Positions 25,532 to 47,380 of a stretch of DNA of 55,349 nt are shown piece by piece; within the stretch, counting starts at the first letter, position 1; every line of letters starts with the position of its first letter. A program made the position numbers and the translations under genes. This DNA comes from an uncultured Clostridia bacterium. GTDB taxonomy: Bacteria > Bacillota > Clostridia > Christensenellales > UBA1242. The DNA lies in assembly GCA_947629145.1 (NCBI GenBank), contig CANRCQ010000002.1, positions 1 to 55,349 of the forward strand, read 5' to 3'. Below the pieces are notes generated by a model. It was not told where the DNA came from. It did not search any database and saw only the letters and a list, made by a program, of their open reading frames with translations.

Positions 25532-25570
25532 TGCCTTGGCCGCCAGCAAAATGTCCAGCGGAATTTTGCC

Positions 25571-26073: not shown

Positions 26074-26156
26074 AAATGCCTAAAAATAATTTTCCCAAAA
26101 TAGACAACAAATATTCTTGAAGTATAAAGCCTGTGGGATTGTGAAAAAATAATGAT

Positions 26157-26534: not shown

Positions 26535-26536
26535 CA

Positions 26537-26626
26537 GGGCATATTGCCATCTTTGAAAAAGATGTCGTGCCAAGAACTTGGCACGAAAAAAAGCGACTTT
26601 AAAAGTCGCTTTTTTGCAATATGCCC
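26537..26626. repeat. Three-hairpin 'closed cloverleaf' element, copy 2; acts as a compound bidirectional terminator
   Basis: GGGCATATTGC c CATCTTT-gaa-AAAGATG t CGTGCCAAG-aa-CTTGGCACG AAAAAAAGCGACTTTT/AAAAGTCGCTTTTTT GCAATATGCCC. Sits exactly between the stops of two convergent genes (26534 and 26629). Confidence 0.7.
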
Positions 26627-26628
26627 AC

Positions 26629-27406: not shown

Positions 27407-30400
27407 TTAACTTTCTGTTGTTTGACTTGATATTTCGCTTCCTTGGAAAGCCCCGCCACCGTTGATAACTTCTCCCGAGCACCAAACATTGACCTTCCCC
27501 ATTGTAGCACCATATTCATACCAGTAATTATCTAAAATCCATCTTAGAAAAACCAATAATCTAGATATATCAATAGATGCAGAAACATATATTGTTTCAG
27601 ATACTCGCTGTCGATTGTCCCCAATATCGTCCCCTTTTCCGCCATAAATTTTGCTGTAATTTGAATCATTGCCAATAGCTCCATCAATCCATGCATTATA
27701 TCTTTCATTCATTTCATCGTTAGATGGAGAATGGAAATAATACCAAGCACCAGATTCTGTATTAAAGTCTGAAGCAGTAAACATTCTGTTTGGATTCAAA
27801 CCTAATCTATATATATCATTCACAACCAGTTTCCTGTCGCCACAATCTCCAGGATAAGCTTCATGATGCGTTTCGTTTATATCTTCACGCGCAAATCCTT
27901 TCTGTCCACCATTTCCAGAAAAATAGACATATCCATTTTGATTTCCAACTATTTTAGTTTGTCCTTGGTCGTCGATATACTTAATATAAAATCTTCCAAG
28001 TCCACCGACACCACCATTCCCGCCACATTGAGTACTTGCAATATTAGGTTTAAAAGATGTATCTTCTGTGCCGTTAAGTAAACCATTTTGCCCTTTTTTA
28101 TGTGTCATTCCGCCGGCGCCTCCGCCTAATGCTACATTCGAATTGAACCAACCGTTTACACCATTTCCACCATAACCGCTCATTCCACCAGCGCCAACAC
28201 GCGCAAGGGTGATATTATTAGTATTGATTTTGATAGAACCACCAGCACCACCTGGAGCGCCATCTATGCCACTACCACCTACAATATTATTGTTATCATA
28301 TGTAATGTATCCAGAACCATCACTTCCATTCTTTGCCTTCATTGCACTTCCTGCAACAATAATTCCGCCAGCATTTGGACAACTCTTCTCTTCCAAAGTA
28401 ACATTTACAGATTCCCCTTCACCAGCATCCAAACCAGTCATTGCAACATAGGATTTTATATTACCTATGTATATATCTTTATTGTCATTTTGTTCCACTT
28501 CTACATTACAACTACTTACTGTAATATCATATGTTGCATTAACATTTCGCATATTCCCGTAAAGTTTTACATTGTTAACCGATGCACTAATTTCTGGCAT
28601 TAGTAATGATGTATTATCATTTACATTTTCCAAAGACCTTTGTCCCACAAAGTTAATATCTTTGATTATGCTTTCATTGACATTAAACAATGTTGTCTCT
28701 TGAAATTTTAAAATATAGCTATTTCCAACAAGTGTTTTATCATTTTTTGTTAATCCCATAGATACATAAATATCTGCATCAAGTAGCACAATTTCAAATT
28801 TATTCTCTGGTTCCGGTTTCTCTTCCGCCAACATTATGTCTGGTTCATTGTCTTCACTGTTTCCGCCTGTTGATTGTATAGCTACATTTAACGGTTCAGT
28901 TGATTCTTCAATATCAAAATAATAAGTAAATTCAGTTGAATTATATGGATATTCATTTTTTGCGACAAATTCATAATCGTCTTGTGTTGTTTGATAATTA
29001 AATTCTTTAGATTCTTTCCAATGTAAAGTCTCTCCAGCATGCACTGTTATTGGTTCCGAGTCTTGATAGCCAAAATAAACTTCACAATTTGGAGTATCTT
29101 GTTGTCTATATTGGTCTTCAACAGCACCACAAAACGTGTAATTTCCTATATTATTAGGTGATTTTATCACAGAAATATAACCATCATAATATTTGTCACT
29201 ATCTGTTGATTCAGTTATGTTTCCAAAATCACTTACAATAAAATCAACTGTAATATCACTATTCCCATAAAAATATTTTGAGAAGTTTTTAACATCATCT
29301 ATACTTTTTTCTTCACTAGAACTTGAAGTAATATTATCATCATTTACACTTAATGTTGTTTCCATCTCTGTAATTGTCCCCGCGGTGAATCCTTTTGCTT
29401 CTTGATTGTAATATGTATATTGAATCATCTTTGTAGATTGATTTTCTGTAGTTCCATACTCAACCCTTATAGCCCCACATTTAAAAATAGTATAAGTATA
29501 ATAGATTCTTTTTGGCCCACTAGAGCTATTTTCAGTTGTTGTTTTGGTTGTAGAAATTGATTCACAAACTTCACCACATATAGGGCATGTCTTCTTTGTG
29601 TCACCTGCCTCACTCTCAATAATTGTGCCATCATATACTGTTTTAAAAACATTATATTGCGTGTTATTATCATCACCGTTTGCTTGTTTTAATGACAAAG
29701 TTGAACTTCTAAATGCAAATGGTGCTTGTGATGATGGATAATTTACGGTGTTAACAGTCAATGAAATTGATTGCCCATCAAACTCTTTCGCCTTTTCTCT
29801 ATCTGCAATACTGAGTGTTTTTTGTTCAGGAATCACACTTCCTTGTTTTATAAAATTATCTCCAATTGTAAGAGTATAGCCCTTATATAAACAACTCTCA
29901 TCAAATTTCAATGTAATATCCGTTACATCGTAGCTAAATTTTGCTTTGACAGTATAGAATTTTAAGCCATATTTTTCAAATTCTTCTTTTTCACCTTTAA
30001 AGTTTGCTAATTTTTCCTGAAATGTTTTATAGTCCAGTAAAGCTGCATTCCAATCTTTATCTCCAGACAATGAAACTCTTTCAACAATTTCTCCCAACTC
30101 TCCAAGTTTTATTGAATATTCTGTATCTACACTGTTTGGGACCTCATCTGGGGATCCTACCCCACCATACTCATTCGGTTTTATATTATCCGAACCACCT
30201 CTGATTCCATTAAATGCTTCAAAACTATTATCAAATGCTGTAAGATTTTCCGCACTTCCAGTTATCACAAGTTTATTGCCTTCAAAATTCATCTCCAAGC
30301 CATCGTCTTCTTTTTGTGTGAACACAGTCCAAGCCCCGTTTTCATATTTGAATGCATATTCATCATTTCCAAATGCCAACTTTCCATTTGCTTGTTCAGT

Positions 30401-33400
30401 AAGTGCAGATAAATCATATGAAAGTCCAACAAGAGTTTCATTTTCTTCGTCTTTCACTTTTTCCTTTGTCACATTAGAATTTAAAAATTCATTATCAAAT
30501 TCTTCATACTTTTCTTCAAAGGTCAATGTTGGATAAGTTGGTGTTGGAGTGCTTAATTGAACACTCTCAGTGGTGCCAGAAACACTGTCTATTTGTAGAG
30601 TTTCAACTGACATATCAGATTTGATAATATTTATTACTGTAAATTGCAAAGTTAAATCCAAATCCTTTTCATCGCCCAAATTCAAATTTTGAATCACAAG
30701 GTAATCGCCATCCCAAGAATAGCTTCTGTCACCCATAAGTTCTGTGCCATCTTTCCTTTTTAATGATACTTGCTCAATACTGTCTTTATCAAAACCATTA
30801 TTCGTAAGAGAAGCCATATAACCCGAAAGGTCTATGCGCAAATTATTTCCATCTTGTTTAACAGTGTTGTGTCTAAGGCTTATTGTCACAGGTTCTGTGT
30901 TATATTTGAATGAAACTTTGACTTCGCAATTGCTTCCTGGATTTTTATTAAAATAGATTGTTCCAGAAAGAGTATAAGTTGTTTCCCCATTTTCTCCGTT
31001 TTCAAATTTTAAGTTTTTAATAATTGAAACATCGTCTTTATGTCCAGTAACACTAACTATAAAATTCTCTTTTGAAACAGAATTCTTTAAAACATCTGAA
31101 ACAGTAAATTTTACACTAAAATCAGCATATGCTGCAATATAAACTGCCTGCATATTTTGTGAATTTTCAACAATCGCAACAAGTTGTCCATTTATCGACA
31201 TTGTTCTAATTTTTTTAGTGGTGCTTTCACCATATTTATCGATTTCCTGCATCAGCTCATTAATGTCACTTGCTGTATTATCTTCTTCACCGCCTTCTTC
31301 ATTGCTCTCGACATTATTTTCTTTTTCATGAAAATTAAAATCAAAATTAACTTCAGGATTATATGTATCGCTAGTCGAATACTTAATTAAATTAATTTGA
31401 TTTCTCACAATATTGTCATATTCATCAAACTCTGTGCATGCATAGAATGTTGTATCTGCAGAGAAATTATACTCTTTACTATTCACAGCAGCATTTTCAT
31501 CTGCTGCAAAATCATTATTACTGCCACTGGAAAAGCTATTTTTTACTGTTCCTTTATAGATACTCTTAGACATTGTAAGTGTGCTAGTTGCACTAAAAAA
31601 TGGAAAACGTGGTCTATTTATTGACATATTACCAACCTTAACTTTGTTATAAAATGCCTTAGTATTTGTGTCATTCAGTTTTCTTGTCATTTTATCTTCA
31701 AGATAAATACGAGCAGGAAAACCATAATTGTCATATCCATTGATTTTATAATTTGAAGTGCTATCTACTGTAAACGATGCAAGATATTCTCCATTTGGGT
31801 CATCCATCCAAGATTGTCGAGTAAATTCCATCTCTTGCACATCTCGAATACATCCAATATTCCCATCATTTTTGATATTGTCAATTGAAGATTGAGAGTT
31901 ATTGATACTTCCGCCATTTGCATAACCAAGTCCAAAAGCATACACCATTCTGTCACTGCCACCTTTATTTACATCAGCATTATATATCATTGTCACTCTG
32001 TATTTTAAATTAGAAAGCTCATCACTTTTCTTAAAACCAGTTGATTCATCACTACCACCTTCATATGAAAATTCAACTACAAATTTTGTTTCATCAACCT
32101 GATTTATTGCTTGAACGGCGCCATCATTGATACAGCCTGTAAGATTTGGTGAGCCATAGCCGAAAATTCCGCCAGCAATCGCATAAGTATCCGTGCTGCC
32201 GTAGTTTCCTGCGCCAACAAGCCCTGTGTTGTAAGAACTGTTGATTATTGTGCCACTTGCATAGCCCACAATTCCACCAGCAAGATATTTGTTTGTAGAT
32301 TTATCTCCATCCGTGTCTGTAAATCCGCTCAAAACAGCATTCGCATTGTAAGAGTTTTCAACTGTGCCACCATTTGCATAGCCAACAATTCCGCCAGCAA
32401 TATTACCAAGTTCCTTAGTTGAATTTGAATTTTGAGTGCCAGCCGTTGTTATTTCAGCAAAATACAAGAATGTTGGAGGATTACTACTTGTTGTTGGGTC
32501 TATAATTCCCCCACTTGTATTTCCTGTGCTTACAATTTGTCCGCTGTTTGAAGAATAAGTGATTGTTCCATTTGTTTCTTTTAAATATGTATCGTTTTCC
32601 AATTTATTCAACACACCGACAATTCCGCCGACAATTCCGCCATTTGTTTTTGTGATGTTGACAAGTGACTGAATCTTGTCCGCACTGCCATTGAGTGTGG
32701 CAACCACGCCCCCAACAACATTCGCACCAGAAGTCACACTTCCAATCGCAACAATATTTGAAATGCTTCCATTCACGGTTGATGCCAATGTTGCAGCGCC
32801 AGATGTTGTGATGTCCGCCAATCTAAGATTTTTAATGTCACCTTTCACCTCGCCAAAGAGTGGAGTTGTCAATGGTTCAGCTGACGCAAAGTCCAAAGTG
32901 TGCCCATCGCCATCTAAAATAAATTTGTAATCAGTCTTTAAGATATTATCTCCATATGTGCCATTATAATTTGACATATCAAGGTTATATTTCAACAAGA
33001 ATTTATAATCTTTGGTATAATTATCGCTAGTTCCAACCGTGCTTACCATCTGCTCAAATTTGCCAACATTTGGCACCCCAAGATACCATTCCCCATCATT
33101 GTTTGTTCCATAGTTTTCTGTCCCTGCACTATAAATTTCTGCATAACTTACTTGTGTATAAACGCCGTCTTTTTCTGTGTAAGTCGTCACATTTTTAAGG
33201 TAGCCAAAGCCGTGTGAAGCATAGCCATAGTTTACATATGGCGAGAAATACCATGGAGTTTGAGTTATATCTCCATTAGCAACTTCATCTCCATCATATT
33301 CAGGAGCAGCTTTTATGCTGTAACTTTGTGCTGATTTTTCTGCTTCGCTGTATGCCAAAGCCATTTCCTCAACTGGAGTGTAATCATCTTTTTTATCTTC

Positions 33401-36400
33401 TGTGCCATTATCTCCCACTTCTGCTGTGCCATTTAAGTATTGCCCAAATGTATTGAATGCGAATTTTTCTTCCCCTTCATTATTGATTGTATTTATAAAG
33501 TTTATTGAAGGAGTTCCTGACGACCCACTAAGCAAATCTGTCACTTTGATTTGAGAAATTGAATATACATCCCTTATGTCGTTTGAAGATAATGCTGAAG
33601 GTACTTTTGGCGAATACGCAAGTGTGAAAATATTTGTATTTACAAATGTTTCAAGCATTCCAGAAGAATAGGTGTTTTTGATTGTTGTGTTGTATTCTCC
33701 AACATTTGCCACACCACTCAAGTATCCATAATTAGGTGCAGCGCGATAAGAGATATCCGCATCCACAAAGCATTCATCAATCATGCCGTGTTTCATTGTG
33801 CCGACAATTCCACCAAGTTGCAATCTAGAATTTCCACCAACAGAAAGTTGTCCAGTCACACCAACGCCATAGATAAACGAATTGCCATTTGTCACGCCGA
33901 TCACACCGCCATAAGATGGAGACAAATTTTCTCCGTCTATATCTGCGCTTTCAACCTGAAGATTTATAATCATTCCAGTGATTGCAGTGAAATTTGGAAT
34001 AAGAGCAATAAATTCCACACCATCGGCATTTGTAACAGGATTATCTTCTTCACTTCGATTTGAGTCATAGAATGCCCCCATTGAGTCAATCAAAGCGCCC
34101 TTGTATTGATTCTTATATCTATCATCATCATATTTTTCCATATCGGAAATTCTCGTGTCACTGACAGTAACAGTATGTCCATTGCCGACAATAACCATGT
34201 TTGTGATGTTGTCCCCAAGGGAAGAGATAGGGTTTTCTTCTTTTCCCAAGTCACTATTTAAATAGAACCATGTTATGTTGTGATAAGTCCCCAAAATTGT
34301 GTCATTAAATATTTTATCAAATTCAACTTGATTTGCAGAAATATTTGTTGTAAATTTAGAATCAGCACTCAAAACAATTGGATTAAGTTTGTTGCCACCA
34401 AAACTACTAAAATCTTCAAGAATATTTTCATTTGTAGTCTCAGGTGGAGCATTGGAATCAGATGGTTTTATCGCTTTGTTTGTGTAGCCAGAATATGTAT
34501 AGTTATTATCTTCTTGGGCTCCATAATAGCAATCTGTGTTTCCATCTTCAACTTGATAAGCCATCATAACACCAGAAGAATATTTGTTTCCTCCGTATGT
34601 GACTTTGCCACTCTTTCCGCCAACAATAGCATTAACCCCAATTACGTTTGTTGCTAATCTGTTATTAAAAGATGTCATGATTGTTGAACAATTTGAAATA
34701 TGTACATTTGTTGCATAGCCAACAATTCCGCCAAAATAGTAAGTGGTAAATTTGTTATTAACAGAATAACCATCTTTATTAAACATACTATAATTTACAA
34801 ACACATCGCCATAGGTGCGTGCATTTGTGATTTCGTCTTGTTCATCGCCACTTGGTGTTTTATGATCATATGCTCCAATAACACCACCAACTCTAACTGC
34901 ACAACCATTTATAGTGTTTCCCCGACTTGAAACTTTATCCCAAACTTCAAGCGAACCACCAAAAGCAACATGATTGAAGAAGTTTTTTGAAGTTGTAAAG
35001 TTAAAGTTTGTTTTATTCATATATCCAACGGCGCCACCGAAGTTTATGCTTTTAACTGCCGCCAAAACCACACCAGTGTAGTTGACATATTCCGAGATGC
35101 TGTTATTTATACTGATTGTGTTTAAAGGTGCATTTTCATCTTGGCTGGCGTTTTCACCTTGGCTGAATTGTCCAACAATTCCGCCGATATTTGCAGTTGC
35201 ACTTCCTAAAGTTGAACCTTGTTCATCTTCATAAACGGAAATATTTAAAGAGTTGGTTGCACTTATATTTGTTTCAATATTGCCTTGCGCTGAGCCAATA
35301 TAACCGCCAATATCAACTACTGTGCCTTCTCTATCCTTTATTACTGTTGCAACATCGACAGTTCCACTGACTGCACATCCCCCTGCAATTGTCACATTTC
35401 CGCCATCAACATTTCCAATCATTCCGCCAATTTGTCCACCAGAAATGGTGAATGGACTTAAAACTTCTGAATGGTCAAAATAGAATTTATCAAATGTATC
35501 ATACTCTGTGTCGTCAGTTTCACTTACCTTTGCCTTGTAAGTTGGAACACTTGCCGCTTCTCCAACTCCTTGAAGTTTTCCAAGCCCAAATCTTACACTA
35601 AAGTTTGTAATGCTCACATTTGCATTTGTGTATCCAATCAATCCGCCAATATTCACATTTCCGCTTATCGAGCCTGTTCCACCAAGATAAATTCCACTTG
35701 TGAAAACAGCATTTGAAGCGGCGCTTCCGGCGATTTCAAGGCTTCCTTGGATTACTTGCCCAAAAGCACCCCCAGCATAAAGTGTTTGAACATTAGAGTT
35801 GATAATCATTGAAAATCCCTTAGTTTCGCCAGTGGATTCTGTTTGATTATACATGACATTGTTAACATTGTTCATCTGCCCAACAAAGCCACCAATATAA
35901 AGAGAATTTCCTGCCGTCACTGTCATTTCAACACCTTTAATTTCATTAAGCCCAACATTGATTTCACTAAGGCTGTTTTGAGTCAGTGCTTCTCCGCTTC
36001 TTTCAATTACACCGGAAAGCAATCCCACGTTTGTGATTTTTGCGCTGCTTGATATACTGATTTTTACAACCTTCTTTTCTTCGTCATTTTGGTTGTTGTT
36101 CTCCAATTCTTTTTCAAGTTGGATTCCAGAAACGGAGATTGGTTCTTGTGCCATGATGTCCAAAGAAATCTTTCCTGCAATAAGCCCAATATTTGCTGTA
36201 TCTGTGTTTGTGGAAGTCAAAGAAATAGTAGAATCTTCTCCCCTAACAACAATCTTTGTGTCAATGAAAGTGCAAGTGTCAACTGGCTTGTCAGTAATAA
36301 GTCCCACTGTGTCGCCACTTGTTGAAAGTGCAACACTTTTGTTGTAAATCAAAGAAACATTTCTAAAAATAGAGTTTATAAGTTTTTCTCCACTTCCTTC

Positions 36401-39400: not shown

Positions 39401-42400
39401 AACTTCGCCAGAGTTATCAAAAACAAAACCTGCAACATATCCGCCAAACACATTGATTTTTGTCAATCTGTGTGGAATGATAACACTGTTGTTTTCTTCA
39501 TCACGGCCACCACCAGCGCCTTCAACATAACTTTCTTCAACATTTCCGTTGTTGTAAAGCACAAAGCCGGCTGTTTCGGTTGTGTTGGAGTTCATCATAT
39601 TATATATGTCAACATTGTCTGCAAAAGATGCGCTTATGGTTGCATAGTTGTTTGCCACAAAACCTGCAACTCTCACCTGCCCTTTTATAATAAAGTTTTC
39701 AAGTGGCAAAGTGCTGAGATAGTCAGTTCCTGCAATGTTGATAACCTGTTGAACACTCTCTCCGCCAACACGCGAATTGACGATTGAAAGGTTGTTGTCA
39801 ATGACAAAGCCTGCAACAACACTTTCGTCAATGTTCATGCCGTCAGTCAACTGAACTTCTGTGTCGTTGTTTCCGTTTGTGTAAATGACATTAAGCCCAG
39901 GATTGTCAACATTTACTGTTTGATAATCGCTCTTAAATGCCACAACTTCGCAGTTGTAGATAATTCCGTTGTTTGTGAGTGCAAAACCTGCAATATTTAC
40001 TGTTGAATAGCCTGTGTTTCTTGCAATATTAGCCTTTATCTGTCCGCCTTGATATATGTTTACACGAACATTTTTCAAGGTTGTGTTTTCGGTAACTTCG
40101 TCAAAAAGTGCAAGTCTAAGACTTCTTGAATTTTCTGGCATTGCAAAACTGTTTAAGTGAATTGTGTAGCCATTTCCATCAAGGCTGTTGAACATTGTTG
40201 TTGAAAGTGGAGTGTAGTTTTCAAGCACAATGTCGTTCATTAAAATGTAATCTTCCGCCTTAGCATCCGCTCTGTTAGGGTCGGCATATCTTTCCAAATC
40301 CGCCTGTGATGTGATTGCAACAGGGTTTTCTTCGTCATACCAACTGTCAACCACAACAACAAAGAAGTATGGAATCCTTGCAATCAACTGCCCTTTGTGA
40401 TAAACAATTGTTTCAAGGCGCATAAGTTGTTTGCCTGTGTTAATTCCAGTGAACACAAGGTTGGTTGTGCCAGGCTCTTCTTCAATCGAGAACAAGTCGT
40501 TTCTGTTGATTCCGCCAGTCACTGAGTTGTAAATGCTTTCTGTGTCATATTCATCCCTTGCATATGCAAGTTGTTGCTTCAGCGCAAGTGGTGAGTAAGA
40601 ATTTGAATTTAAATCATATGTATAGTTTATGTAATATTGTGTTTTTTCATTTTCATAGTTATTATTATTTATAAACTTTCCTTTTTCAGTTTCTATATGC
40701 TTAACCGCATCCACTTCGTCTGGGTTGGACTGGTTGATATTATAGTTTTGTGGAATAAGTGGATAGTCAAAAGTGAGCCTTGTTGGTGCGCCCCTGTAAA
40801 CATAGAACGCATCATAGGTGTTTTGATTATATTGAGTTGTGTTGTGAGAGCCGCTTACAGAAATTCCTTCGCTGTCGATAATGAAATCCAACAAGTTCAT
40901 TGTAATTGAAGTGTATTTAATGTCAGGAACTCCGTTGATAAGTCTGCTTACTCCTGCGCGCACATAGAACACCCCTGTGTCCGCACTGCGGCCTTCTTCC
41001 ATAACCTTTGCATTCACTTTTACATCAAGAATTGCGGTGTAAATGCGGAAATTGCCTTCTTCTGTTGGAGTGCCTTGAATAAGCGAAATTCCATAGCCGT
41101 TGTTTTGAAGGGAAATTGTTGCCGTTTGCTCTATTCCAACCGTCACTTTAATATTTGCGGTTGTCCCCTTTGCAATAAGATAGGATGATACACGTTGGTC
41201 GTTTATTGTGATTTGTGCATCTTGCATAAAGTCGATATTAAGTTTTTGAGTTGCCACATAAGGCTGTCTGCCTTCGCTGTAGAAAGTTGCTGTAAAGATG
41301 ATTGTTGTGCTGTCTTGGAAGATGTTGGATGCGTAAACTCTAAAATAGTAATAGCCGTCTCCACTTCTGTCATCATCATCGATATTGACTCTCATTCCGT
41401 TGTCAAGAGTGGATGTCTTTGCGTTGTTTAAATACAATCCAAAGTTTGGATTTTCAACCAATCGCATGATTTGGATTGCTGCATTTGGTTGATTTGTGCC
41501 TTCTTGAATTGCATAAGTAAGTGTAAAGTGAGTTGCAAGTGCAAATTCTGGTGTCACATGAACAACCAAAATTGCATCACTTGATGGGATGATTGTGGTT
41601 GCCTTGTTGTCGCTCTGTGTGTAATACATTGTGTTGTTGACACTTCTTCTGGTTTGGATGTCGTAAATATCAATATCAACTGCATTTACATATTCAGGCA
41701 CAAGTTTCATTTCCACGGTGTTCACGTACATAGTGTTGTCAATTTGGCTCAATGCGTTCACAGAAAGTGTGAAATTATATTCTTTCACAACTTTGTATCT
41801 CTCCGCATAAGGCACATAAACAGAAACAGAATATTTTGTTCCATCTTCGTTTAAGTTCCAAATAACCTGCAAATGAAGATTTGTGTCAATCTCAAATTCA
41901 ACATTTCTTAATGTGCTTATATGGTCACTTTGGAAAGTTCTGTCCCCAATATTAAGTGTAAACACAAGGTTGTCGGTGTCACTGTCTGTTGTCATCAAAA
42001 CATCAAAAGTTGCATAGTCCACTGGGCTGAAATTGAGTTTGTTTGCATTTGTAATCAAAAGTCTTCTTGCCCCATTGTAAACAGAAACTTTAAATTGTCT
42101 TGTCAATTTTTCACGGAGTGCATTGTTATACTTTTCAATTCCAACATCTTTGTCGCCTTCTTTTATTGTGGCATCAAGTCCTACAATGTTTTTAAGGTTT
42201 TTAATTTCAACATAGGTTGAAACACTTGTCAAATCACTATCACTAGCCTTATTGCCAGAAAGCACCAAAGATAACTCGCTTTTTGTGAAGGAAACGTATG
42301 TTTCGCCTGTTTTTTCATCAATGATATTATTTTCTGCAACATAATCAATTTGATAATAAGAATTGTCCGCAACTGAAGAATATTCATTGCCATTAAGCAT

Positions 42401-45400
42401 AATTGAGTGGTCAAGTTGATGAACAAGTGTAAGCATCTTTTTATCGGTTGCAGAGTTGCTTGTTTGCAAAGTTACAACTTCATTGTCGTTTAACACATAG
42501 CCGTCAATGAGTGTTGTAAGTTTTGGAAGATTGTTGACAATCACAACATTGAATGTCTTTGTGTTTGTAAGGTCCATCTTAGAGTGAGCCACAATGTTTA
42601 CAACTCGGCTTTCAGTGTTTGTAATTCTAAGGGAAGTTGAAGTTATGCTTAAATTTTGTGAAACAGAAGAGATAATCAAACTCTTTTGTTCTGCCTTTTC
42701 AATGTTAAACAAATCAGTAAGTTCCAAAGTGTTAAGCCTTACAAGTTCCATTCTTTCCGCAGAATCTGTGATTGTGGCAGTTGGCTGATAGTAGAACAAA
42801 ACTGCATTTGTGTCGTCAACTTTCACAATCTTATCTGTATTTTCGTTGAATTTAACATCGTTAATGTTAAGTGCCGCACTTTGAACATTATTTTTAAGAT
42901 AAATCATGCCAAAGTTTACATTGATGTCAATATCGTCAAGTTGCCAAATATTTCCGTCTAAAACTTGTCTATAAACGCCCTGCAAATTGCCTTCTTGATA
43001 TGTTTGATTATTGGTTTCGTTTATTCCGTCAGTTAAAAATGTCATTGTCATCTTGGTGTTATCTTCTGCAAATCTAAGATAATAAGAGTTGATACACCTT
43101 ACATTTCCATAGGAAACATTCTGCAAATTGCTCATAAAGCCAAAGCATTCTTCAATATTGTAAGAAATGTCACTGTTTCCAACAAACATATATACATTTG
43201 TTGCGCCGAGAATCAATGTATTGTAAAGCCCCTTTACATCTGTAAATGGATATGCGTAGATATAACTTCTGTAAATCCTGCTATCGGCCGATGTAACTTG
43301 TCCAACAAGTCCCCCAAAGTTGCAATCTCTGCCAAGTGTAAATGTGTTATAATCGTTTTCCCCAAAGGTGTAAAATTCCACACCGCAACTTTCAATTCGT
43401 CCTGAGTTTTTCCCAGCAATTCCACCAGCATATAAAGAGTTTGGTGCATTTATGTCCATGCCGTATGTATAAGAATTTATGATTGTCCCTTGGTTGTCCC
43501 CAACAATTCCGCCAACACAAACTTCTTCTTTCAAATTTGTCAAACTGCTTGAAGAATATTTGTTATTTTTGTAACTTACATCAATTCTTACATTTGAAAT
43601 TGTGCCAAGGTTTGTGTTTGCAACAAAGCCTGCTGTGCTTTCTTCCGTTGTCACTTCCCCAGTAAATATAAGGTCAAAAATTTGTCCTTCAAGGCTGTCC
43701 ACAAAGTTTTGACTTCCGCTTGTAAAGTTGAGTGTAACACTGTCATTATCTCCAAACACAGCCCCATTTTTTGCAATTCTGTCGAATGTTTGCCAGCCAC
43801 TAAGGGTAAGGTTGTTCATAATGCGATATTTTAAAGCCTTGTCGATTTTTTTCAAATCATCTTCGCTGTAAATTCTCACTGCTGTTTCAATGTTTTCGCC
43901 GTCAGCAATGATGATTGGTATGCATAAAATCACATCACTGTAATAAATTCTTTCATTGTCATTGTTTAAGAAGAAGTTTGAATATTCGTCACTGCCATTG
44001 ATAATTTGGTCATAATAATTTTCAAGTCTGTTAAGTGGAATATAACAAATGTTTTCTTCAAGTAAATTTCCATCATCGTCAAATTCATATTTATAAATCA
44101 ACACTTGGTCAATGCCGTCAACGCGTTTAATCATGTCATTTGGCAAGATATACAAGTTTACAACTCCACCCTTGTTGTTGTCATCGCCTGTGATTGACAA
44201 ATTAAAGTTTTGTCCGCCATCAATGTTTTCAGTTGCGGCAATTTTAAATCTTGAGCCATCGCCAGAGATTGTGGCAGGTCTAACACCTAAAGTTTTATCG
44301 TTTGCCCCATCAAGTCCATTTGGAGAAACAGCGGTTTTAATCACAAACTTTCTTGCACTTTCCTGTGGAGAAGTGAGATTAAGATAAACATCCCCTGTGC
44401 TTGTTCTGTTCACCCACTCAACCTTTTCAACACGGTTTACATTTCTAATTTCCAAAGAAATGTCAACCTTTCTCATAAAGCCGAAATCATCTTGATAAGT
44501 TATTGTCAAAAGGTCATGAACACTTGTTTGATGAGCCGTGGAAGTTGCCGTGATTGTGAATGAGAAAAATCTTCCACTAACAGGGGTTGAAATATTGCTT
44601 ATCGTGTAATAGCGATTTTTCTTGACTGCATCAGGAGTGTCTTTTTCCCAATCTCCAAGTGAAGAAGTGAGTGTGAAATATGAGATGTCATTTGTGTAAG
44701 TTGGCGTTTTTCCATCCGTTCTAAAACTTATCGTCACATCAACAGAAGCACGTGCAATGTCCGCTTGGCTGAGTGTTTCTGTGGTGTAAAGAATTTTGTC
44801 TCTCACATTGCTTGAAAGGGTTTTAACTGCATAAAAACTTTCCAAAGCAAATATTCTCACTGCAACAACTTCTCTGTGGTCAATGCTAAATCCGTTGAAT
44901 CTTGCAAAAACAAAGCCTTTAAAAGCATTGTTTGAAAGGGTGAGTCTGTTTGTTGTAATGCTGAAATAGTCGCTTAGTCCAGACCAAATTCCTTCCAAAG
45001 CCCCATATAATGTGGACAAATAATTCAAAGCACTTTTCCCTTCAAAAAGTTGGTCGCTTTCCCCAGCATATTTAAAGATATTTTCGCCAGTTTCTTCGCC
45101 AGCAATTTCCTTGACACTATCAAGTGTCACAAAGCCATATTCAACCGCTGTTGAAAGTGATTGAAAGGTTGTTTCAAGTGAAAGAACAGAGCCTGCTTCA
45201 ATCATGATTTTAGCAAGTGAAACATTTGTTAAATTTTGATTTGGGTCAATTATAAGTGAACTTCCATCAAGCAAAAATCCTTGTTCCAAATTCTTTGAGT
45301 AATAAACATTTGAAGATAGTGGGTCTGCATTTAAAATTGAAACATCGTTAATTGGGATAAATGCTTCAACATCAAAATGTTTTGAACTTACTTGTGTGAT

Positions 45401-47302
45401 ATGTTCAAACCAAAAACTTGCCGTGCTGTCAAAGTTTGTGCCGCTAAGCCTAACAGTAAACGAAACGATAATAAAATCTTGGTCGTCTTCCCCTTCGGCA
45501 ACGTGTTTTTCAACAACCGCTTCTGGATTATTCACAAAATAATCTTCTTCTGGGAAGATAAATCGTGGATTGTTGTCATGTTTAAAACTAAGCCCTGCCG
45601 CAGAAGTCAACCCCATGATTTTAACATTGTAACTTATTTGTGCATTTTGAATGGTTGATGCAACATATTGCGTTTCAAGGTCAGCCCCATCTTCATTGTA
45701 AACATCAAGAGATTGTTCAGCAGAAATTCTGTATAAATTCAAAGTGATTTGCGTCTTTTTGCTGTCGTCACTTTGTGGGACAAAATCAAAAACTACGCCT
45801 TCAAGTGAGCCTTTGATTTTGTCACTTGCAATCAATGTGATTGTGTCGCCACTTTGAAGGGGTGCTGATGTAAATTCATAATTAGAGTTTGTAAATTCAA
45901 TATCTCTCCCACGCACCATAAATCTAACAAGCGAGCTTATTTGTCGCTCATCAGCGGAAAGTTGTGCAAAATAATTTCTCAGTTGACTTGATTGATTGAT
46001 GTTGATTTTGATGTTAAACAAGTTGTTGTCAAGTTGCACGCCGTCATTTGGCAACAAAATTGTTCTTATTGTGTAGCCACTTGAATTGTATTGAGAGAAA
46101 ATGTCAATCTCTTTGTTGTTCAAAGGGTTTTGTTGTGCATCCAACAATTCAATTCCATCAACAGCATATGATGTTTGAATAATTGGGCTTATTTGATTTG
46201 TGACAATGTCATAATCATAGTCCGCATAGCCAATGCTAAGTTGAAATAGATATTCGCCGCTTGTGTTGTTGTCATAATAATCTTGTGCGTTTATCTCAAA
46301 ATGATAGGTCACTCTCCCAGTGTTCTCTTCGCGAGATGTAACATCAAAAGTGAAATAATCCAAATAATTGTCAATTCTTCTCAGCCCAGTTGTGGAATAT
46401 TCATAGAAAATTGGCGAAAGTCTAATGTCATATTTTGTGTTGATAACAATTTCGCCACTTGCAACAGCATTAGTTGCGTCATTGCGTTTAAGTTCAAAGG
46501 TGGCTGTTTCCGTTTGAATTGCATTGTCAGCATAAAATGAAACAGTGTTGGAATTGTCGCTTATTTGCAAAGAGTTGATTGTGGAATTATCAAGAACATC
46601 AAATTCAACAGTGTTTGCAATATCCTTGTTTTCTGTGAAAGAAGCCTTTAAGTTGACTTTTTCCATTTGGGCATCCTGTGAAACCCACAACTTGTTGTTT
46701 TCAATCTTTGCAACAATACGGCTGTCTTCAATCATAACAGGTGTGCCATTTTCATCGGCTTGTCCATTTGTAAAAGTCCATTCAATGTCTTTGATATTTG
46801 CAGTAAGGGGTTTCAAATCAAAATAATCTTCGGCATTTAAAAGTTTTTCGTTTCCATCTCCTTTAACAATAAATCTGTTTGTTCGTCCTTGGGTGGAGTC
46901 ATTTTGTGTAGTGTCAATTTTTTCAAGAACGGTGTTTACATTGACATAAATGACTTTAAACAAATTCACATTGTCAATTGCCCAAACTCTAACCCTAGCA
47001 GTTCCGCTTTTATCTCCGTAAATTGTAAAAGAATATGTATTGTCATTGCGGCGTCTTGTTGCTGAAAGGTGGATTGTGTTATCTCCGCCAGGTTCAACCA
47101 TCTTTCCAATGCCAGCGGAAGAATTACCCACATAAACTGTCACTTCCTTGGACAACACGTTGTATTGGTTTTGACTGTTTGTGTAGATTGTCACATTTTC
47201 TGTGTCGATGGAAAGTGACACCTGCTTTTCACAGCAAGCCGTCAGCATCCCTCCTGTCAACATCATAAAAACACTAAAAATTCCTAATAAAAATTTTTTC
47301 AT
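27407..47302 (-). CDS. Giant (6631 aa) lipoprotein-type surface protein with GLUG-like repeats
   Basis: Single open frame of 19,896 nt in AT-rich DNA. RBS AAGGGGGA. Signal peptide with lipobox MKKFLLGIFSVFMMLTGGMLTAC. At least ~35 motifs of the type (Y/I/V)(A/G)G(G/F)(I/L/V)(V/I/F)G..N.G.I.NSY. Gly-rich tract near the C-terminus. No LPXTG or SLH seen. Confidence 0.9.
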   Translation of the reverse strand: MKKFLLGIFSVFMMLTGGMLTACCEKQVSLSIDTENVTIYTNSQNQYNVLSKEVTVYVGNSSAGIGKMVEPGGDNTIHLSATRRRNDNTYSFTIYGDKSGTARVRVWAIDNVNLFKVIYVNVNTVLEKIDTTQNDSTQGRTNRFIVKGDGNEKLLNAEDYFDLKPLTANIKDIEWTFTNGQADENGTPVMIEDSRIVAKIENNKLWVSQDAQMEKVNLKASFTENKDIANTVEFDVLDNSTINSLQISDNSNTVSFYADNAIQTETATFELKRNDATNAVASGEIVINTKYDIRLSPIFYEYSTTGLRRIDNYLDYFTFDVTSREENTGRVTYHFEINAQDYYDNNTSGEYLFQLSIGYADYDYDIVTNQISPIIQTSYAVDGIELLDAQQNPLNNKEIDIFSQYNSSGYTIRTILLPNDGVQLDNNLFNIKININQSSQLRNYFAQLSADERQISSLVRFMVRGRDIEFTNSNYEFTSAPLQSGDTITLIASDKIKGSLEGVVFDFVPQSDDSKKTQITLNLYRISAEQSLDVYNEDGADLETQYVASTIQNAQISYNVKIMGLTSAAGLSFKHDNNPRFIFPEEDYFVNNPEAVVEKHVAEGEDDQDFIIVSFTVRLSGTNFDSTASFWFEHITQVSSKHFDVEAFIPINDVSILNADPLSSNVYYSKNLEQGFLLDGSSLIIDPNQNLTNVSLAKIMIEAGSVLSLETTFQSLSTAVEYGFVTLDSVKEIAGEETGENIFKYAGESDQLFEGKSALNYLSTLYGALEGIWSGLSDYFSITTNRLTLSNNAFKGFVFARFNGFSIDHREVVAVRIFALESFYAVKTLSSNVRDKILYTTETLSQADIARASVDVTISFRTDGKTPTYTNDISYFTLTSSLGDWEKDTPDAVKKNRYYTISNISTPVSGRFFSFTITATSTAHQTSVHDLLTITYQDDFGFMRKVDISLEIRNVNRVEKVEWVNRTSTGDVYLNLTSPQESARKFVIKTAVSPNGLDGANDKTLGVRPATISGDGSRFKIAATENIDGGQNFNLSITGDDNNKGGVVNLYILPNDMIKRVDGIDQVLIYKYEFDDDGNLLEENICYIPLNRLENYYDQIINGSDEYSNFFLNNDNERIYYSDVILCIPIIIADGENIETAVRIYSEDDLKKIDKALKYRIMNNLTLSGWQTFDRIAKNGAVFGDNDSVTLNFTSGSQNFVDSLEGQIFDLIFTGEVTTEESTAGFVANTNLGTISNVRIDVSYKNNKYSSSSLTNLKEEVCVGGIVGDNQGTIINSYTYGMDINAPNSLYAGGIAGKNSGRIESCGVEFYTFGENDYNTFTLGRDCNFGGLVGQVTSADSRIYRSYIYAYPFTDVKGLYNTLILGATNVYMFVGNSDISYNIEECFGFMSNLQNVSYGNVRCINSYYLRFAEDNTKMTMTFLTDGINETNNQTYQEGNLQGVYRQVLDGNIWQLDDIDINVNFGMIYLKNNVQSAALNINDVKFNENTDKIVKVDDTNAVLFYYQPTATITDSAERMELVRLNTLELTDLFNIEKAEQKSLIISSVSQNLSITSTSLRITNTESRVVNIVAHSKMDLTNTKTFNVVIVNNLPKLTTLIDGYVLNDNEVVTLQTSNSATDKKMLTLVHQLDHSIMLNGNEYSSVADNSYYQIDYVAENNIIDEKTGETYVSFTKSELSLVLSGNKASDSDLTSVSTYVEIKNLKNIVGLDATIKEGDKDVGIEKYNNALREKLTRQFKVSVYNGARRLLITNANKLNFSPVDYATFDVLMTTDSDTDNLVFTLNIGDRTFQSDHISTLRNVEFEIDTNLHLQVIWNLNEDGTKYSVSVYVPYAERYKVVKEYNFTLSVNALSQIDNTMYVNTVEMKLVPEYVNAVDIDIYDIQTRRSVNNTMYYTQSDNKATTIIPSSDAILVVHVTPEFALATHFTLTYAIQEGTNQPNAAIQIMRLVENPNFGLYLNNAKTSTLDNGMRVNIDDDDRSGDGYYYFRVYASNIFQDSTTIIFTATFYSEGRQPYVATQKLNIDFMQDAQITINDQRVSSYLIAKGTTANIKVTVGIEQTATISLQNNGYGISLIQGTPTEEGNFRIYTAILDVKVNAKVMEEGRSADTGVFYVRAGVSRLINGVPDIKYTSITMNLLDFIIDSEGISVSGSHNTTQYNQNTYDAFYVYRGAPTRLTFDYPLIPQNYNINQSNPDEVDAVKHIETEKGKFINNNNYENEKTQYYINYTYDLNSNSYSPLALKQQLAYARDEYDTESIYNSVTGGINRNDLFSIEEEPGTTNLVFTGINTGKQLMRLETIVYHKGQLIARIPYFFVVVVDSWYDEENPVAITSQADLERYADPNRADAKAEDYILMNDIVLENYTPLSTTMFNSLDGNGYTIHLNSFAMPENSRSLRLALFDEVTENTTLKNVRVNIYQGGQIKANIARNTGYSTVNIAGFALTNNGIIYNCEVVAFKSDYQTVNVDNPGLNVIYTNGNNDTEVQLTDGMNIDESVVAGFVIDNNLSIVNSRVGGESVQQVINIAGTDYLSTLPLENFIIKGQVRVAGFVANNYATISASFADNVDIYNMMNSNTTETAGFVLYNNGNVEESYVEGAGGGRDEENNSVIIPHRLTKINVFGGYVAGFVFDNSGEVKNSYANIAIENSTYKASYVAGFVYRNNEDGIVTLCFTACEIENIDSQQRPFAGVSGDLSLNNGSITYSYYYSLTNEGVTNEANFTSGVTPIADLVNNPENLMYGFSFASGENSGDGIWVKTDDGITLVNANKIAVSNRYMFVANETEQFIYNTALRDNSTLLPIDLSYGSERNPIIIRSAKDFVLAMGKAQSNEISSYAQYYSSTAIWGNYRFVNDIEFDETIEQNPQSSEQVEGRYNLTTSTKTFEGSLIGNGFTLSGIRLSSLQQAENYGLFAKLDTAKIINLQLGVEYVNTDASIVGILAGTAVDTKIISVAVEGENTTDGIKVNGENIVGGLVGMLFGESRLQDISISNIYVVSADYESKTITRNTEYTSRLKGLIQERRPLIDQTTHLSYAGAVVGYVDMYKNTNDTNVKFETTIFVDNFDILNVHVSGFVNVYGEVAGGLFGYVGRSTKIYDASLTLDADASRSIHPSYIIAKNLYAGGLIGENYGGLFAVYASYSQDIQDAIEEGENSYYMNGASVERGQDSIFSYDENADREFEDVDTKYDDPLFIGGLVGYMGAGYIYIGYSKLNVVARSARTLAVGGIIGMLSSTGTTSRVDAIEGTPNANIVLNDVYASGDVHLENGRSDAYSAGIVGALSNASSTMPVLVMRDVMAMNYYKAENSRLVGDNVLANAETSENLRATSDHHFMLIGALYQYRDNSFTRTNRLNSNLYIIKDNSAYYNVYDATYSASNNAGHITVGGYNKVVIGQNSVYINPFGFGFDVREGDKIQDYLIYAVHIGESIMQSEGQGDLSTPSTYFKGYFIERGWQEQYWVHENNKLFPRIELSQRANEITWDVYNTEEVVSAMETSHNIKIVLRGKTSRNELSASYTDIDLRLNATQNGMQITQDLYNRLHNAFKQYTGTLVSYYQDRRLEDCRLNESVTENGTVIGGKAPSSGVPSTVDPGLIIDAPLFGIRSGADTGTGMTVNGINFYFTPNAESSTGAIDYTLVGGESEGSGEKLINSIFRNVSLIYNKSVALSTSGDTVGLITDKPVDTCTFIDTKIVVRGEDSTISLTSTNTDTANIGLIAGKISLDIMAQEPISVSGIQLEKELENNNQNDEEKKVVKISISSSAKITNVGLLSGVIERSGEALTQNSLSEINVGLNEIKGVEMTVTAGNSLYIGGFVGQMNNVNNVMYNQTESTGETKGFSMIINSNVQTLYAGGAFGQVIQGSLEIAGSAASNAVFTSGIYLGGTGSISGNVNIGGLIGYTNANVSITNFSVRFGLGKLQGVGEAASVPTYKAKVSETDDTEYDTFDKFYFDHSEVLSPFTISGGQIGGMIGNVDGGNVTIAGGCAVSGTVDVATVIKDREGTVVDIGGYIGSAQGNIETNISATNSLNISVYEDEQGSTLGSATANIGGIVGQFSQGENASQDENAPLNTISINNSISEYVNYTGVVLAAVKSINFGGAVGYMNKTNFNFTTSKNFFNHVAFGGSLEVWDKVSSRGNTINGCAVRVGGVIGAYDHKTPSGDEQDEITNARTYGDVFVNYSMFNKDGYSVNNKFTTYYFGGIVGYATNVHISNCSTIMTSFNNRLATNVIGVNAIVGGKSGKVTYGGNKYSSGVMMAYQVEDGNTDCYYGAQEDNNYTYSGYTNKAIKPSDSNAPPETTNENILEDFSSFGGNKLNPIVLSADSKFTTNISANQVEFDKIFNDTILGTYHNITWFYLNSDLGKEENPISSLGDNITNMVIVGNGHTVTVSDTRISDMEKYDDDRYKNQYKGALIDSMGAFYDSNRSEEDNPVTNADGVEFIALIPNFTAITGMIINLQVESADIDGENLSPSYGGVIGVTNGNSFIYGVGVTGQLSVGGNSRLQLGGIVGTMKHGMIDECFVDADISYRAAPNYGYLSGVANVGEYNTTIKNTYSSGMLETFVNTNIFTLAYSPKVPSALSSNDIRDVYSISQIKVTDLLSGSSGTPSINFINTINNEGEEKFAFNTFGQYLNGTAEVGDNGTEDKKDDYTPVEEMALAYSEAEKSAQSYSIKAAPEYDGDEVANGDITQTPWYFSPYVNYGYASHGFGYLKNVTTYTEKDGVYTQVSYAEIYSAGTENYGTNNDGEWYLGVPNVGKFEQMVSTVGTSDNYTKDYKFLLKYNLDMSNYNGTYGDNILKTDYKFILDGDGHTLDFASAEPLTTPLFGEVKGDIKNLRLADITTSGAATLASTVNGSISNIVAIGSVTSGANVVGGVVATLNGSADKIQSLVNITKTNGGIVGGIVGVLNKLENDTYLKETNGTITYSSNSGQIVSTGNTSGGIIDPTTSSNPPTFLYFAEITTAGTQNSNSTKELGNIAGGIVGYANGGTVENSYNANAVLSGFTDTDGDKSTNKYLAGGIVGYASGTIINSSYNTGLVGAGNYGSTDTYAIAGGIFGYGSPNLTGCINDGAVQAINQVDETKFVVEFSYEGGSDESTGFKKSDELSNLKYRVTMIYNADVNKGGSDRMVYAFGLGYANGGSINNSQSSIDNIKNDGNIGCIRDVQEMEFTRQSWMDDPNGEYLASFTVDSTSNYKINGYDNYGFPARIYLEDKMTRKLNDTNTKAFYNKVKVGNMSINRPRFPFFSATSTLTMSKSIYKGTVKNSFSSGSNNDFAADENAAVNSKEYNFSADTTFYACTEFDEYDNIVRNQINLIKYSTSDTYNPEVNFDFNFHEKENNVESNEEGGEEDNTASDINELMQEIDKYGESTTKKIRTMSINGQLVAIVENSQNMQAVYIAAYADFSVKFTVSDVLKNSVSKENFIVSVTGHKDDVSIIKNLKFENGENGETTYTLSGTIYFNKNPGSNCEVKVSFKYNTEPVTISLRHNTVKQDGNNLRIDLSGYMASLTNNGFDKDSIEQVSLKRKDGTELMGDRSYSWDGDYLVIQNLNLGDEKDLDLTLQFTVINIIKSDMSVETLQIDSVSGTTESVQLSTPTPTYPTLTFEEKYEEFDNEFLNSNVTKEKVKDEENETLVGLSYDLSALTEQANGKLAFGNDEYAFKYENGAWTVFTQKEDDGLEMNFEGNKLVITGSAENLTAFDNSFEAFNGIRGGSDNIKPNEYGGVGSPDEVPNSVDTEYSIKLGELGEIVERVSLSGDKDWNAALLDYKTFQEKLANFKGEKEEFEKYGLKFYTVKAKFSYDVTDITLKFDESCLYKGYTLTIGDNFIKQGSVIPEQKTLSIADREKAKEFDGQSISLTVNTVNYPSSQAPFAFRSSTLSLKQANGDDNNTQYNVFKTVYDGTIIESEAGDTKKTCPICGEVCESISTTKTTTENSSSGPKRIYYTYTIFKCGAIRVEYGTTENQSTKMIQYTYYNQEAKGFTAGTITEMETTLSVNDDNITSSSSEEKSIDDVKNFSKYFYGNSDITVDFIVSDFGNITESTDSDKYYDGYISVIKSPNNIGNYTFCGAVEDQYRQQDTPNCEVYFGYQDSEPITVHAGETLHWKESKEFNYQTTQDDYEFVAKNEYPYNSTEFTYYFDIEESTEPLNVAIQSTGGNSEDNEPDIMLAEEKPEPENKFEIVLLDADIYVSMGLTKNDKTLVGNSYILKFQETTLFNVNESIIKDINFVGQRSLENVNDNTSLLMPEISASVNNVKLYGNMRNVNATYDITVSSCNVEVEQNDNKDIYIGNIKSYVAMTGLDAGEGESVNVTLEEKSCPNAGGIIVAGSAMKAKNGSDGSGYITYDNNNIVGGSGIDGAPGGAGGSIKINTNNITLARVGAGGMSGYGGNGVNGWFNSNVALGGGAGGMTHKKGQNGLLNGTEDTSFKPNIASTQCGGNGGVGGLGRFYIKYIDDQGQTKIVGNQNGYVYFSGNGGQKGFAREDINETHHEAYPGDCGDRKLVVNDIYRLGLNPNRMFTASDFNTESGAWYYFHSPSNDEMNERYNAWIDGAIGNDSNYSKIYGGKGDDIGDNRQRVSETIYVSASIDISRLLVFLRWILDNYWYEYGATMGKVNVWCSGEVINGGGAFQGSEISSQTTES

Positions 47303-47350
47303 GTGTCCCCCTTTATAGCATTTGCAATAACGCGGTTTTTATATATAAAT

Positions 47351-47380
47351 ATTATAAATAAAACGCGCGCGAAAAGTCAA
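47351..47380 (-). promoter_or_regulatory. Near-consensus sigma-A promoter of the giant gene
   Basis: Minus strand TTGACT (47380-47375), 18-nt spacer (contains CGCGCGCG), TATAAT (47356-47351), about 50 nt upstream of the ATG. Confidence 0.45.

Follow-up and report, generated by a model that had tools for sequence, protein, structure and literature searches.

Does the longest open reading frame (ORF) of this stretch of DNA encode a real protein and, if so, what could a gut bacterium with a small genome use it for? The stretch, referred to here as the window, comprises 55,349 nt of contig CANRCQ010000002.1 (assembly GCA_947629145.1) from an uncultured Clostridia bacterium, and 19,896 nt of it (36%) are taken up by one uninterrupted frame coding for 6,631 amino acids. 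We find that this giant gene is genuine and intact and that it belongs to the conserved core of a clade of genome-reduced gut Clostridia. Its product may well be a lipid-anchored contact fibre with a variable tip.

An intact gene with its own promoter

The gene and the signals that accompany it are the following.

27407–47302, minus strand: giant ORF with an ATG start, 6,631 amino acids plus a stop codon and no internal stop; intact orthologues are present in dozens of independent metagenome-assembled genomes (MAGs)
47351–47380, minus strand: sigma-A-type promoter TTGACT-18-TATAAT, scoring 11/12 in a consensus scan
47306–47314, minus strand: ribosome-binding site AAAGGGGGA, read in the sequence, with GGAGG kept at the same place in orthologues
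47234–47302, minus strand: lipoprotein signal peptide (residues 1–22) and lipobox L-T-A-C with Cys23 as the putative lipidation site, seen in the sequence as the only strongly hydrophobic segment

From the base composition (37% GC), about 493 stop codons are predicted for the coding frame and the probability of finding none is about 1e-223, while the remaining five frames of the same 19.9 kb contain between 212 and 663 stops. A promoter of the form TTGAC[TA]-17/18-TATAAT (11–12 of 12 positions) together with GGAGG is found in about 45 of 52 orthologous loci, where the promoter lies 48–90 nt upstream of the start codon. The giant gene has spoIIID (PF12116), spo0A, radC, an M23/SpoIIQ-like gene and acpP as neighbours in the window. 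A terminator-like hairpin is present 3' of spoIIID at 47557–47529, between spoIIID and the giant gene. At the other end radC begins 22 nt past the giant-gene stop codon, and no terminator was found in this 22-nt gap. A 44-nt inverted repeat flanking the giant gene is 70% complementary and AT-rich and was judged to be due to chance.

The N-terminus of the protein reads MKKFLLGIFSVFMMLTGGMLTA followed by Cys. The arrangement MKK-FLLGIFSVFMMLTGGM-LTA-C, with cleavage predicted before the cysteine, fits a positive n-region, a hydrophobic h-region and the pattern [LVI][ASTVI][GAS]C. The lipobox is kept in essentially all orthologues (more than 50), and no further transmembrane-like segment is seen in the 6,631 residues. 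The same 6,631 residues contain no HExxH, LPxTG, SLH-like or choline-binding motif. Long DNA repeats are likewise absent from the gene, where the only matches are degenerate ones of 25–31 nt that code for a GG[IV]VG motif. On all these points (the open frame, the near-consensus promoter with a strong ribosome-binding site, the lipoprotein signal, the missing anchor and HExxH motifs and the lack of long exact repeats) the original prediction, made from the letters of the window, is borne out.

Orthologues, synteny and host clade

With an alignment of the protein's conserved core as the query, orthologues were sought in a set of genomes with a single representative for each GTDB species. The search gave 87 loci; 79 of these are distinct and were retained, with one locus per MAG. 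Almost all of them lie in MAGs of uncultured gut bacteria, with human, deer, rabbit, mouse and sheep among the hosts; 'Clostridia bacterium', 'Candidatus Caccovivens sp.' and 'uncultured Christensenella/Catabacter' are among the labels. The homologous frame is open for about 6,000–6,700 codons in almost every locus with enough DNA; 24 orthologues are complete (6,059–6,701 residues) and many more remain open to the edge of the fetched DNA. It had been asked whether relatives carry only fragments, and what was found in about 80 species-level gut MAGs are intact proteins of this length. The gene order flippase-like/orf183/M23 (SpoIIQ-like)/acpP/spoIIID/giant gene/radC is kept in dozens of species, with neighbouring proteins that are 50–70% identical. 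The closest relative is a rabbit MAG (L029), in which the neighbouring proteins are about 90% identical. The giant gene is thus real and functional, since its frame is open where about 493 stops are expected, its orthologues are open, synteny is conserved and each MAG has one locus.

An assembly artefact, a chimeric join or a decaying pseudogene had to be considered because the window is a single MAG contig and because the collapse of repeats sometimes creates very long ORFs. The gene lacks long repeats, however, and its 5' end, with the promoter and upstream genes, and its 3' junction with radC both recur on independent short contigs of other samples. Dozens of independent orthologues share the same length and architecture, so that this explanation is effectively refuted.

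The giant protein is present once in the public protein collection. A word-indexed search of 5.8 billion proteins returned two distant giants alone for the N-terminal half and no match for the C-terminal 1,432 residues or for the tip family profile. An exhaustive HMMER search of the last 1,200 residues against 1.84 billion representative proteins retrieved only the giant protein itself, and no relatives were found in JGI metagenomes searched with radC as an anchor.

A group of distant homologues (L063–L070 and L076) was also observed in MAGs labelled 'uncultured Christensenella sp.', with a core identity of 26–29% and ORFs ranging from about 5,040 to more than 7,000 residues. Lipobox and promoter are kept in these, and spoIIID and radC are not within the flanks. 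One distant homologue lies in a bin labelled Alistipes finegoldii that is probably mis-binned.

Ca. Caccovivens corresponds to GTDB genus UBA11517 in family UBA1242, order Christensenellales (PMC8035907). Genomes of UBA1242 are mostly smaller than 1 Mb. [quoted passage not shown] The gene content of the window (spo0A, spoIIID, sipL, ypeB, Mur ligases and pyruvate, phosphate dikinase) agrees with this picture, and the small-genome gut Firmicute suspected as the host in the original prediction is confirmed by the MAG labels and this literature. Since UBA1242 genomes are mostly below 1 Mb, the giant gene would amount to about 2% of the genome, a very large investment as had been proposed. We conclude that Ca. 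Caccovivens and its relatives in UBA1242, a family of gut Clostridia with reduced genomes, share it as a single-copy, syntenic core gene. The papers mentioning UBA1242 that were searched contain no description of it, and in a survey of giant genes the entries for Clostridia are RCC1 or Listeria-Bacteroides-repeat proteins alone, from Oscillospiraceae (bioRxiv 10.1101/2023.11.21.568195).

Domain organization and fold

Sliding-window hidden Markov models (HMMs), derived from an alignment of 53 family sequences, were used to search the giant protein itself. This self-scan resulted in seven mutually related modules, which alternate with regions of other character. From the N-terminus to the C-terminus, after the signal peptide, the protein is organized as follows, with AF2 standing for AlphaFold2.

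43946–47233, minus strand: anchor-proximal, non-repetitive β-rich region (residues 24–1119), possibly Ig-like, with no repeats and stray weak Ig-like hints
43163–43945, minus strand: β-helix module 1 (residues about 1120–1380), from sub-threshold GLUG, a profile match to 3N6Z and the HMM self-scan
40286–43162, minus strand: non-repetitive region (residues about 1381–2339) with no internal repeats and no database match
37403–40285, minus strand: most conserved core, consisting of β-helix modules 2 (residues about 2340–2720) and 3 (residues about 2830–3300) with a linker between them, from conservation and AF2/Foldseek
34523–36745, minus strand: β-helix module 4 (residues about 3520–4260), more variable, about 40% identical to the closest species, from the HMM self-scan and motif map
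33623–34405, minus strand: β-helix module 5 (residues about 4300–4560), from the HMM self-scan and motif map
32123–33145, minus strand: β-helix module 6 (residues about 4720–5060), from a profile match to 7UVL_P and GLUG in 11/32 orthologues
28826–32005, minus strand: hypervariable, non-repetitive distal region (residues about 5100–6159), defined by column identity, with a CPIC...C...C motif at residues 5906–5942
28313–28825, minus strand: β-helix module 7 near the tip (residues about 6160–6330), linked by the HMM self-scan to modules 1, 4 and 6
27893–28315, minus strand: Gly-rich, G-x-x-like tract (residues about 6330–6470; ...GYGGNG.NG...GGG.GG...GGNGG.GG.GR), with family-conserved motifs and variable spacing
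27410–27892, minus strand: terminal domain (residues about 6471–6631) with the conserved end motif W-[CST]-SGE-x-[IL]N-x-[AG]G (residues about 6607–6619), from the family alignment

The assignment of the modules to GLUG-type β-helices is made at the level of family profiles only. In the window protein the Pfam GLUG family (PF07581) scores 19.7 bits, below the gathering cut-off of 20.5; whole- and half-protein Pfam and NCBIfam scans gave no match and 760-residue pieces gave this sub-threshold GLUG alone. Among the orthologues, 11 of 32 match GLUG in residues 4300–5200 (modules 5–6; best E value 2e-8) and four of 32 in the core, and a few match GLUG or M26_N in the core segment. The family profile of module 6 aligns with residues 118–373 of 7UVL_P, the NTD2 β-helix of the IgA1 protease of G. 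haemolysans, with an E value of 3.8e-12, while that of module 1 matches PDB entry 3N6Z ('putative IgA1 protease') with an E value of 5.8e-4. The loose motif [AGV]G[GFLIVA][IVLAF][GA] occurs 31 times, compared with 2.4 times in shuffled sequences. The positions of the GLUG-like clusters mapped by eye in the original prediction are therefore upheld; that map was incomplete, however, as the seventh module near the C-terminus had been missed, and the GLUG relationship that it proposed is seen with the family profiles and falls short of the threshold for the single sequence. Module 7 carries a cap-like motif, LL.ADI..GN.Y.L.F..LF..N..I.D, that is kept in the family alignment.

Foldseek searches with a low-confidence model of the core retrieved right-handed β-helix proteins exclusively, including 7UVK and 6XJA, with TM-scores of 0.1–0.25; given the low confidence of the model, this result is used for the fold class alone. 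BLAST self-comparison of the giant protein detected no internal repeats at E ≤ 1e-3. The regions between the modules (residues 24–1119, 1381–2339, about 5100–6159 and the terminal 160) have no significant Pfam, NCBIfam, PHROGs or PDB match with profiles of 24–32 sequences; for residues 24–1119 this includes the 32-sequence profile searched against Pfam and the PDB. PDB profile searches were also null for the N-terminal region, the core, residues 3310–4300 and 5200–5800 and the tip. In total, about 4,000 residues outside the β-helix modules are without a detectable relative of known structure.

Conservation falls towards the C-terminus

Identity to the closest species is 60–85% in the N-terminal two-thirds of the protein, about 40% in residues 3300–4000 and 16–50% in the last 1,400 residues. 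The order of conservation, with the core above the N-terminal regions, these above modules 4–6 and the distal regions last, is the same in all species pairs, and pairs that are 70–80% identical in the core are just about 35% identical in the tip. Across the family the mean column identity of the distal region (residues about 5100–6159) is 13–17%. There are 269 positions that are at least 90% conserved, all of them before residue 5500 or so. They include 118 Gly, 29 Asn, 44 Tyr/Phe and 11 Pro and not a single His or Glu. A conserved set of Gly, Asn and aromatic residues without His or Glu points to structure rather than catalysis.

The same contrast is seen on a shorter evolutionary scale, between the window and a population that is about 97% identical to it.

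Upstream flank: 98.1% identity at the nucleotide level
First 909 nt of the giant gene: 95.0% at the nucleotide level (93% at the amino-acid level)
Last 807 residues: 47% at the amino-acid level, collinear
Downstream flank: 97.8% at the nucleotide level

The C-terminal part of this comparison comes from positions 1–2424 of contig L001 aligned with 27410–29830 of the window, in which the radC flank is 97.8% identical in DNA and the last 807 residues are 47% identical between collinear alleles. High DNA identity returns inside the last 28 codons or so, which points to an allele exchange bounded by the conserved C-terminal motif and radC. This suggests that recombination at the motif replaces one tip allele with another.

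An apparent divergence at the end of another contig (L083) was set aside as an artefact of a low-coverage contig end, as this piece contains a stop codon and has no match anywhere. The GC fraction of the hypervariable 3' third (28001–32000) is 0.33, compared with 0.37–0.40 in the conserved middle (32001–42000); this may reflect relaxed or different selection, or exchanged DNA.

Comparison with known systems

Giant fibrillar adhesins of the Ebh, SiiE and LapA/Bap type are β-rich, elongated proteins of several thousand residues with an anchor at one end and presumed binding at the other. They consist of many near-identical tandem repeats and have recognized adhesive and anchor domains (LPXTG or type I secretion system signals). 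The giant protein resembles them in being β-rich, elongated and anchored at one end with presumed binding at the other. It differs in lacking BLAST-detectable tandem repeats and a recognized adhesive domain, in having an N-terminal lipid anchor and in being encoded by a core rather than an accessory gene. With regard to the stalk of repeated domains found in fibrillar adhesins, the giant protein has seven divergent β-helix modules that are detectable by profiles only, with intervening regions free of repeats. RTX adhesins secreted by a type I system differ further: the window organism is monoderm and its giant protein has an N-terminal Sec/lipoprotein signal, with just two isolated GGxGxD motifs (residues 6342 and 6554) and no RTX arrays.

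The GLUG β-helices of known structure, namely NTD2 of the Gram-positive M26 IgA1 metalloproteases (7UVK/7UVL and 6XJA) and the Bacteroides protein 3N6Z, share xGG[IVL][IVA]G...G.I.N[SC] turns with the giant protein. The proteases have one such module, whereas seven are found in the giant chain, which is without the M26 catalytic region, HExxH, G5 and LPXTG; neither Peptidase_M26_C nor G5 was matched in Pfam and NCBIfam scans. NTD2 itself is a β-helix scaffold or gating domain and not the catalytic part of the protease (PMC9637739).

The giants of Omnitrophota (bioRxiv 10.1101/2023.11.21.568195) and the virulence-factor-like giants of green sulfur epibionts (bioRxiv 10.64898/2026.03.19.712371) are likewise very large, poorly annotated and β-helix-containing. 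The hosts of such epibiont and predator giants live attached to other cells and, as here, make a large investment in a small genome. Many transmembrane segments and divergent SecA-like DEAD helicase domains characterize the Omnitrophota giants (bioRxiv 10.1101/2023.11.21.568195), whereas the window protein has one lipoprotein signal and neither a transmembrane array nor SecA/DEAD domains, for which Pfam and NCBIfam scans gave no match. No sequence relationship to either group of giants was found.

Phage tailspikes and tail fibres also combine a right-handed β-helix body with a fast-diversifying distal receptor-binding part, and tailspikes are among the Foldseek matches. In contrast to these, the giant gene stands in a conserved chromosomal housekeeping context. 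It has no significant PHROGs match, and a tblastn search with the tip against 50,697 phage records gave no match. IMG/VR contributed three matches alone, of 100–130 residues, to the generic cap motif. A phage origin is thus unsupported by PHROGs, IMG/VR and the phage GenBank records.

Pfam scans of the protein revealed no SLH or CWB2-type wall module, and toxin, pretoxin, LXG, Rhs or RTX features were not found. The giant protein can thus be set apart from M26 proteases, S-layer proteins, RTX adhesins, LPXTG proteins, polymorphic toxins and Omnitrophota-type giants, as each of these classes has a defining feature that was looked for in it and is missing. The surface-layer-like structure offered as one option in the original prediction is unsupported, since neither an SLH nor a CWB2-type anchor was detected.

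Proposed function and alternatives

We favour, with a probability of about 0.55, a function of the giant protein as a lipid-anchored contact or adhesion fibre whose variable tip binds a partner cell or a host surface. This appears most likely because the bacteria, which lack standard transporters and the bulk of biosynthesis, are predicted to rely on other cells. The gene would be transcribed constitutively from its own strong sigma-A-type promoter. After export through Sec, the product would receive a lipid at Cys23 that tethers it to the membrane on the outer side. From there its N-terminal two-thirds could extend through the cell wall as a long and fairly rigid stalk. Variable modules, β-helix module 7, the Gly-rich tract and the small terminal domain make up the hypervariable distal third, which would face outward as the interaction surface and bind a partner bacterium or a host-derived surface. 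Diversification of the tip and allele exchange by recombination would set or escape specificity, be it for partner range or under phage or antibody pressure. The fibrillar adhesin proposed in the original prediction fits this in its anatomy, its conserved strong promoter and its gradient from stalk to tip; the adhesive function itself is deduced, and no adhesive domain was detected.

Several points weigh against this assignment. Expression, lipidation and surface exposure are deduced from the sequence. Pfam, NCBIfam and PDB searches recognized no adhesive or ligand-binding domain in the distal 1,400 residues, whether with the single sequence or the family profile. The AF2 model of the core, calculated from a three-sequence alignment, has solenoid-like short strands at a mean predicted local distance difference test (pLDDT) score of 54, with 284 residues at 70 or above, and the single-sequence model of the tip has a pLDDT of 31 and is unusable. 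The within-species contrast comes from a few short, low-coverage contigs of different samples (L001 and L085) and is suggestive rather than firm. The organism of the window is placed in UBA1242 on the strength of its similarity to MAGs with labels such as Ca. Caccovivens, rather than by phylogenomics. Fast distal evolution also fits evasion of immunity or phages without any adhesive role, and the dependence of UBA1242 on partners is itself predicted from genomes.

Evasion is central to the alternative that the protein is a protective or structural coat of the envelope (S-layer-like or a spacer 'fur') against phages, bile, antibodies or predators, without a specific partner and with a tip that varies for evasion only. 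A strong, conserved housekeeping-type promoter, a conserved length, invariant residues that are structural rather than catalytic and hypervariable exposed parts typical of antigenic or phage-receptor variation would all suit such a coat. Nevertheless, we regard it as unlikely: SLH, CWB2 and other lattice- or wall-binding modules were not found, a single lipid anchor on an elongated modular chain of about 6,600 residues is more fibre-like than a lattice subunit, and a coat leaves unexplained why only this partner-dependent clade keeps the gene. It is rather unlikely, too, that the modules form an array of polysaccharide- or cell-wall-degrading β-helix enzymes, of the tailspike depolymerase or pectate/alginate lyase type, that breach the capsule or wall of a partner or harvest host glycans. 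Among the Foldseek neighbours of the core model, lyases, polygalacturonases and phage tailspikes form the majority, and module 2 has a few conserved Asp, Lys and Arg residues; giants of predatory Omnitrophota have moreover been linked to cell-wall degradation (bioRxiv 10.1101/2023.11.21.568195). The Foldseek matches nevertheless report a shared fold, at TM-scores of 0.1–0.25 and with a low-confidence model. No family of carbohydrate-active enzymes, lyases or peptidases was matched by Pfam or NCBIfam in any segment or orthologue, conserved His and Glu are missing while Gly, Asn and aromatic residues dominate, and NTD2 of the IgA1 proteases, a non-catalytic scaffold, is the closest relative in sequence (PMC9637739).

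The position of the gene, directly downstream of spoIIID and near the SpoIIQ-like gene, spo0A, sipL and ypeB throughout the family, raises the idea of a sporulation-associated structure controlled together with spoIIID, for example a spore surface fibre or an exosporium-like appendage. The Gly-rich G-x-x tract loosely recalls collagen-like spore proteins. Retention of sporulation genes in UBA1242 (PMC12306168) adds to the case. Against it, the gene has its own near-consensus, family-conserved sigma-A-type promoter located after the terminator-like hairpin, and a conserved gene order in compact genomes is weak evidence of co-function. Coat and exosporium proteins are also not usually delivered by a Sec/lipoprotein signal. 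We therefore consider a spore structure improbable. The location among sporulation genes (spoIIID and spo0A) pointed out in the original prediction is correct, but looks like compact-genome synteny: the gene's own conserved promoter and the hairpin after spoIIID speak against a functional link. Slightly more improbable still is a contact-dependent polymorphic toxin that carries an exchangeable toxin domain as its variable C-terminus. Such a toxin would account for a C-terminus that is extremely variable between close strains and for the conserved motif at the recombination boundary. There is, however, no slot for an immunity gene, as in the window 22 nt separate the stop codon from radC, which is the next gene in orthologues too. 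The alleles are collinear and homologous along all 807 residues rather than unrelated cassettes, the variable region of about 1,400 residues is far above the size of a toxin tip, and toxin features are lacking.

Other features of the window

The window contains a compact type II CRISPR-Cas locus at 1586–7640. It consists of an array (1586–3010; 66-nt period, about 21.6 copies), Cas1 (3445–4332) and a small Cas9 of 1,102 residues (4332–7640) with HNH, RuvC and REC matches. Keeping adaptive immunity in a genome of presumably less than 1 Mb is notable. YpeB (14246–15622) and a SipL/SPOCS-domain protein (16530–18059) are retained together with spo0A, spoIIID and the SpoIIQ-like M23 gene, in agreement with PMC12306168.

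The Spo0A ORF (24206–25069) is listed with a GTG start, and residue 52 is the first in its profile match. Translation probably begins at an internal Met (MEKVKENK...), in which case the protein would be shorter by about 40–50 residues. About 1.5 kb between spo0A and radC (25070–26628) hold small ORFs only (118–125 residues, on opposite strands), which are also called as genes on contig L001 and have no Pfam match; the stretch has no Rfam match. Two further proteins are without Pfam or NCBIfam matches: one of 625 residues (51296–53173) with a lipoprotein-like N-terminus (...LSVLTGC) and one of 536 residues (22484–24094) with an N-terminal hydrophobic segment. These are possibly additional clade-specific envelope proteins. 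A 478-residue ORF on the plus strand (19182–20618), antisense within the pyruvate, phosphate dikinase gene (18417–21065, minus strand), is most likely a spurious shadow ORF. The Mfd ORF (53223–55295) covers profile positions 293–906 only, so that the upstream part of this gene lies beyond the contig end.

Biological implications

The giant protein represents an undescribed protein family that makes use of a known building block, the GLUG-type β-helix, and belongs to a known kind, the giant elongated surface protein. With some 4,000 residues that lack a recognizable structural relative, it adds considerably to protein 'dark matter'. UBA1242 is widespread and uncultured in the gut of humans, livestock, rabbits, mice and birds, and its interaction machinery has so far gone unnamed. 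A gene of about 20 kb that is kept intact in about 80 species, with the same position, promoter and lipid anchor, is the most obvious candidate for contact with a partner or host. It also provides practical handles, as it could serve as an antigen for localization and as a marker for following strains, and its tip alleles lend themselves to statistics of host association.

Tentatively, one may go further and speculate that the giant protein is the principal partner-contact organelle of an unrecognized type of Gram-positive, spore-forming obligate episymbiont, represented by UBA1242, with a hypervariable tip, presented on a conserved lipid-anchored stalk, that sets for each strain the bacterial or host surface to which it attaches and on which it feeds and that is swapped by recombination. 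We consider this bolder proposal doubtful as it stands. If it were true, tip alleles would predict the identity of the partner and could guide the co-cultivation of UBA1242.

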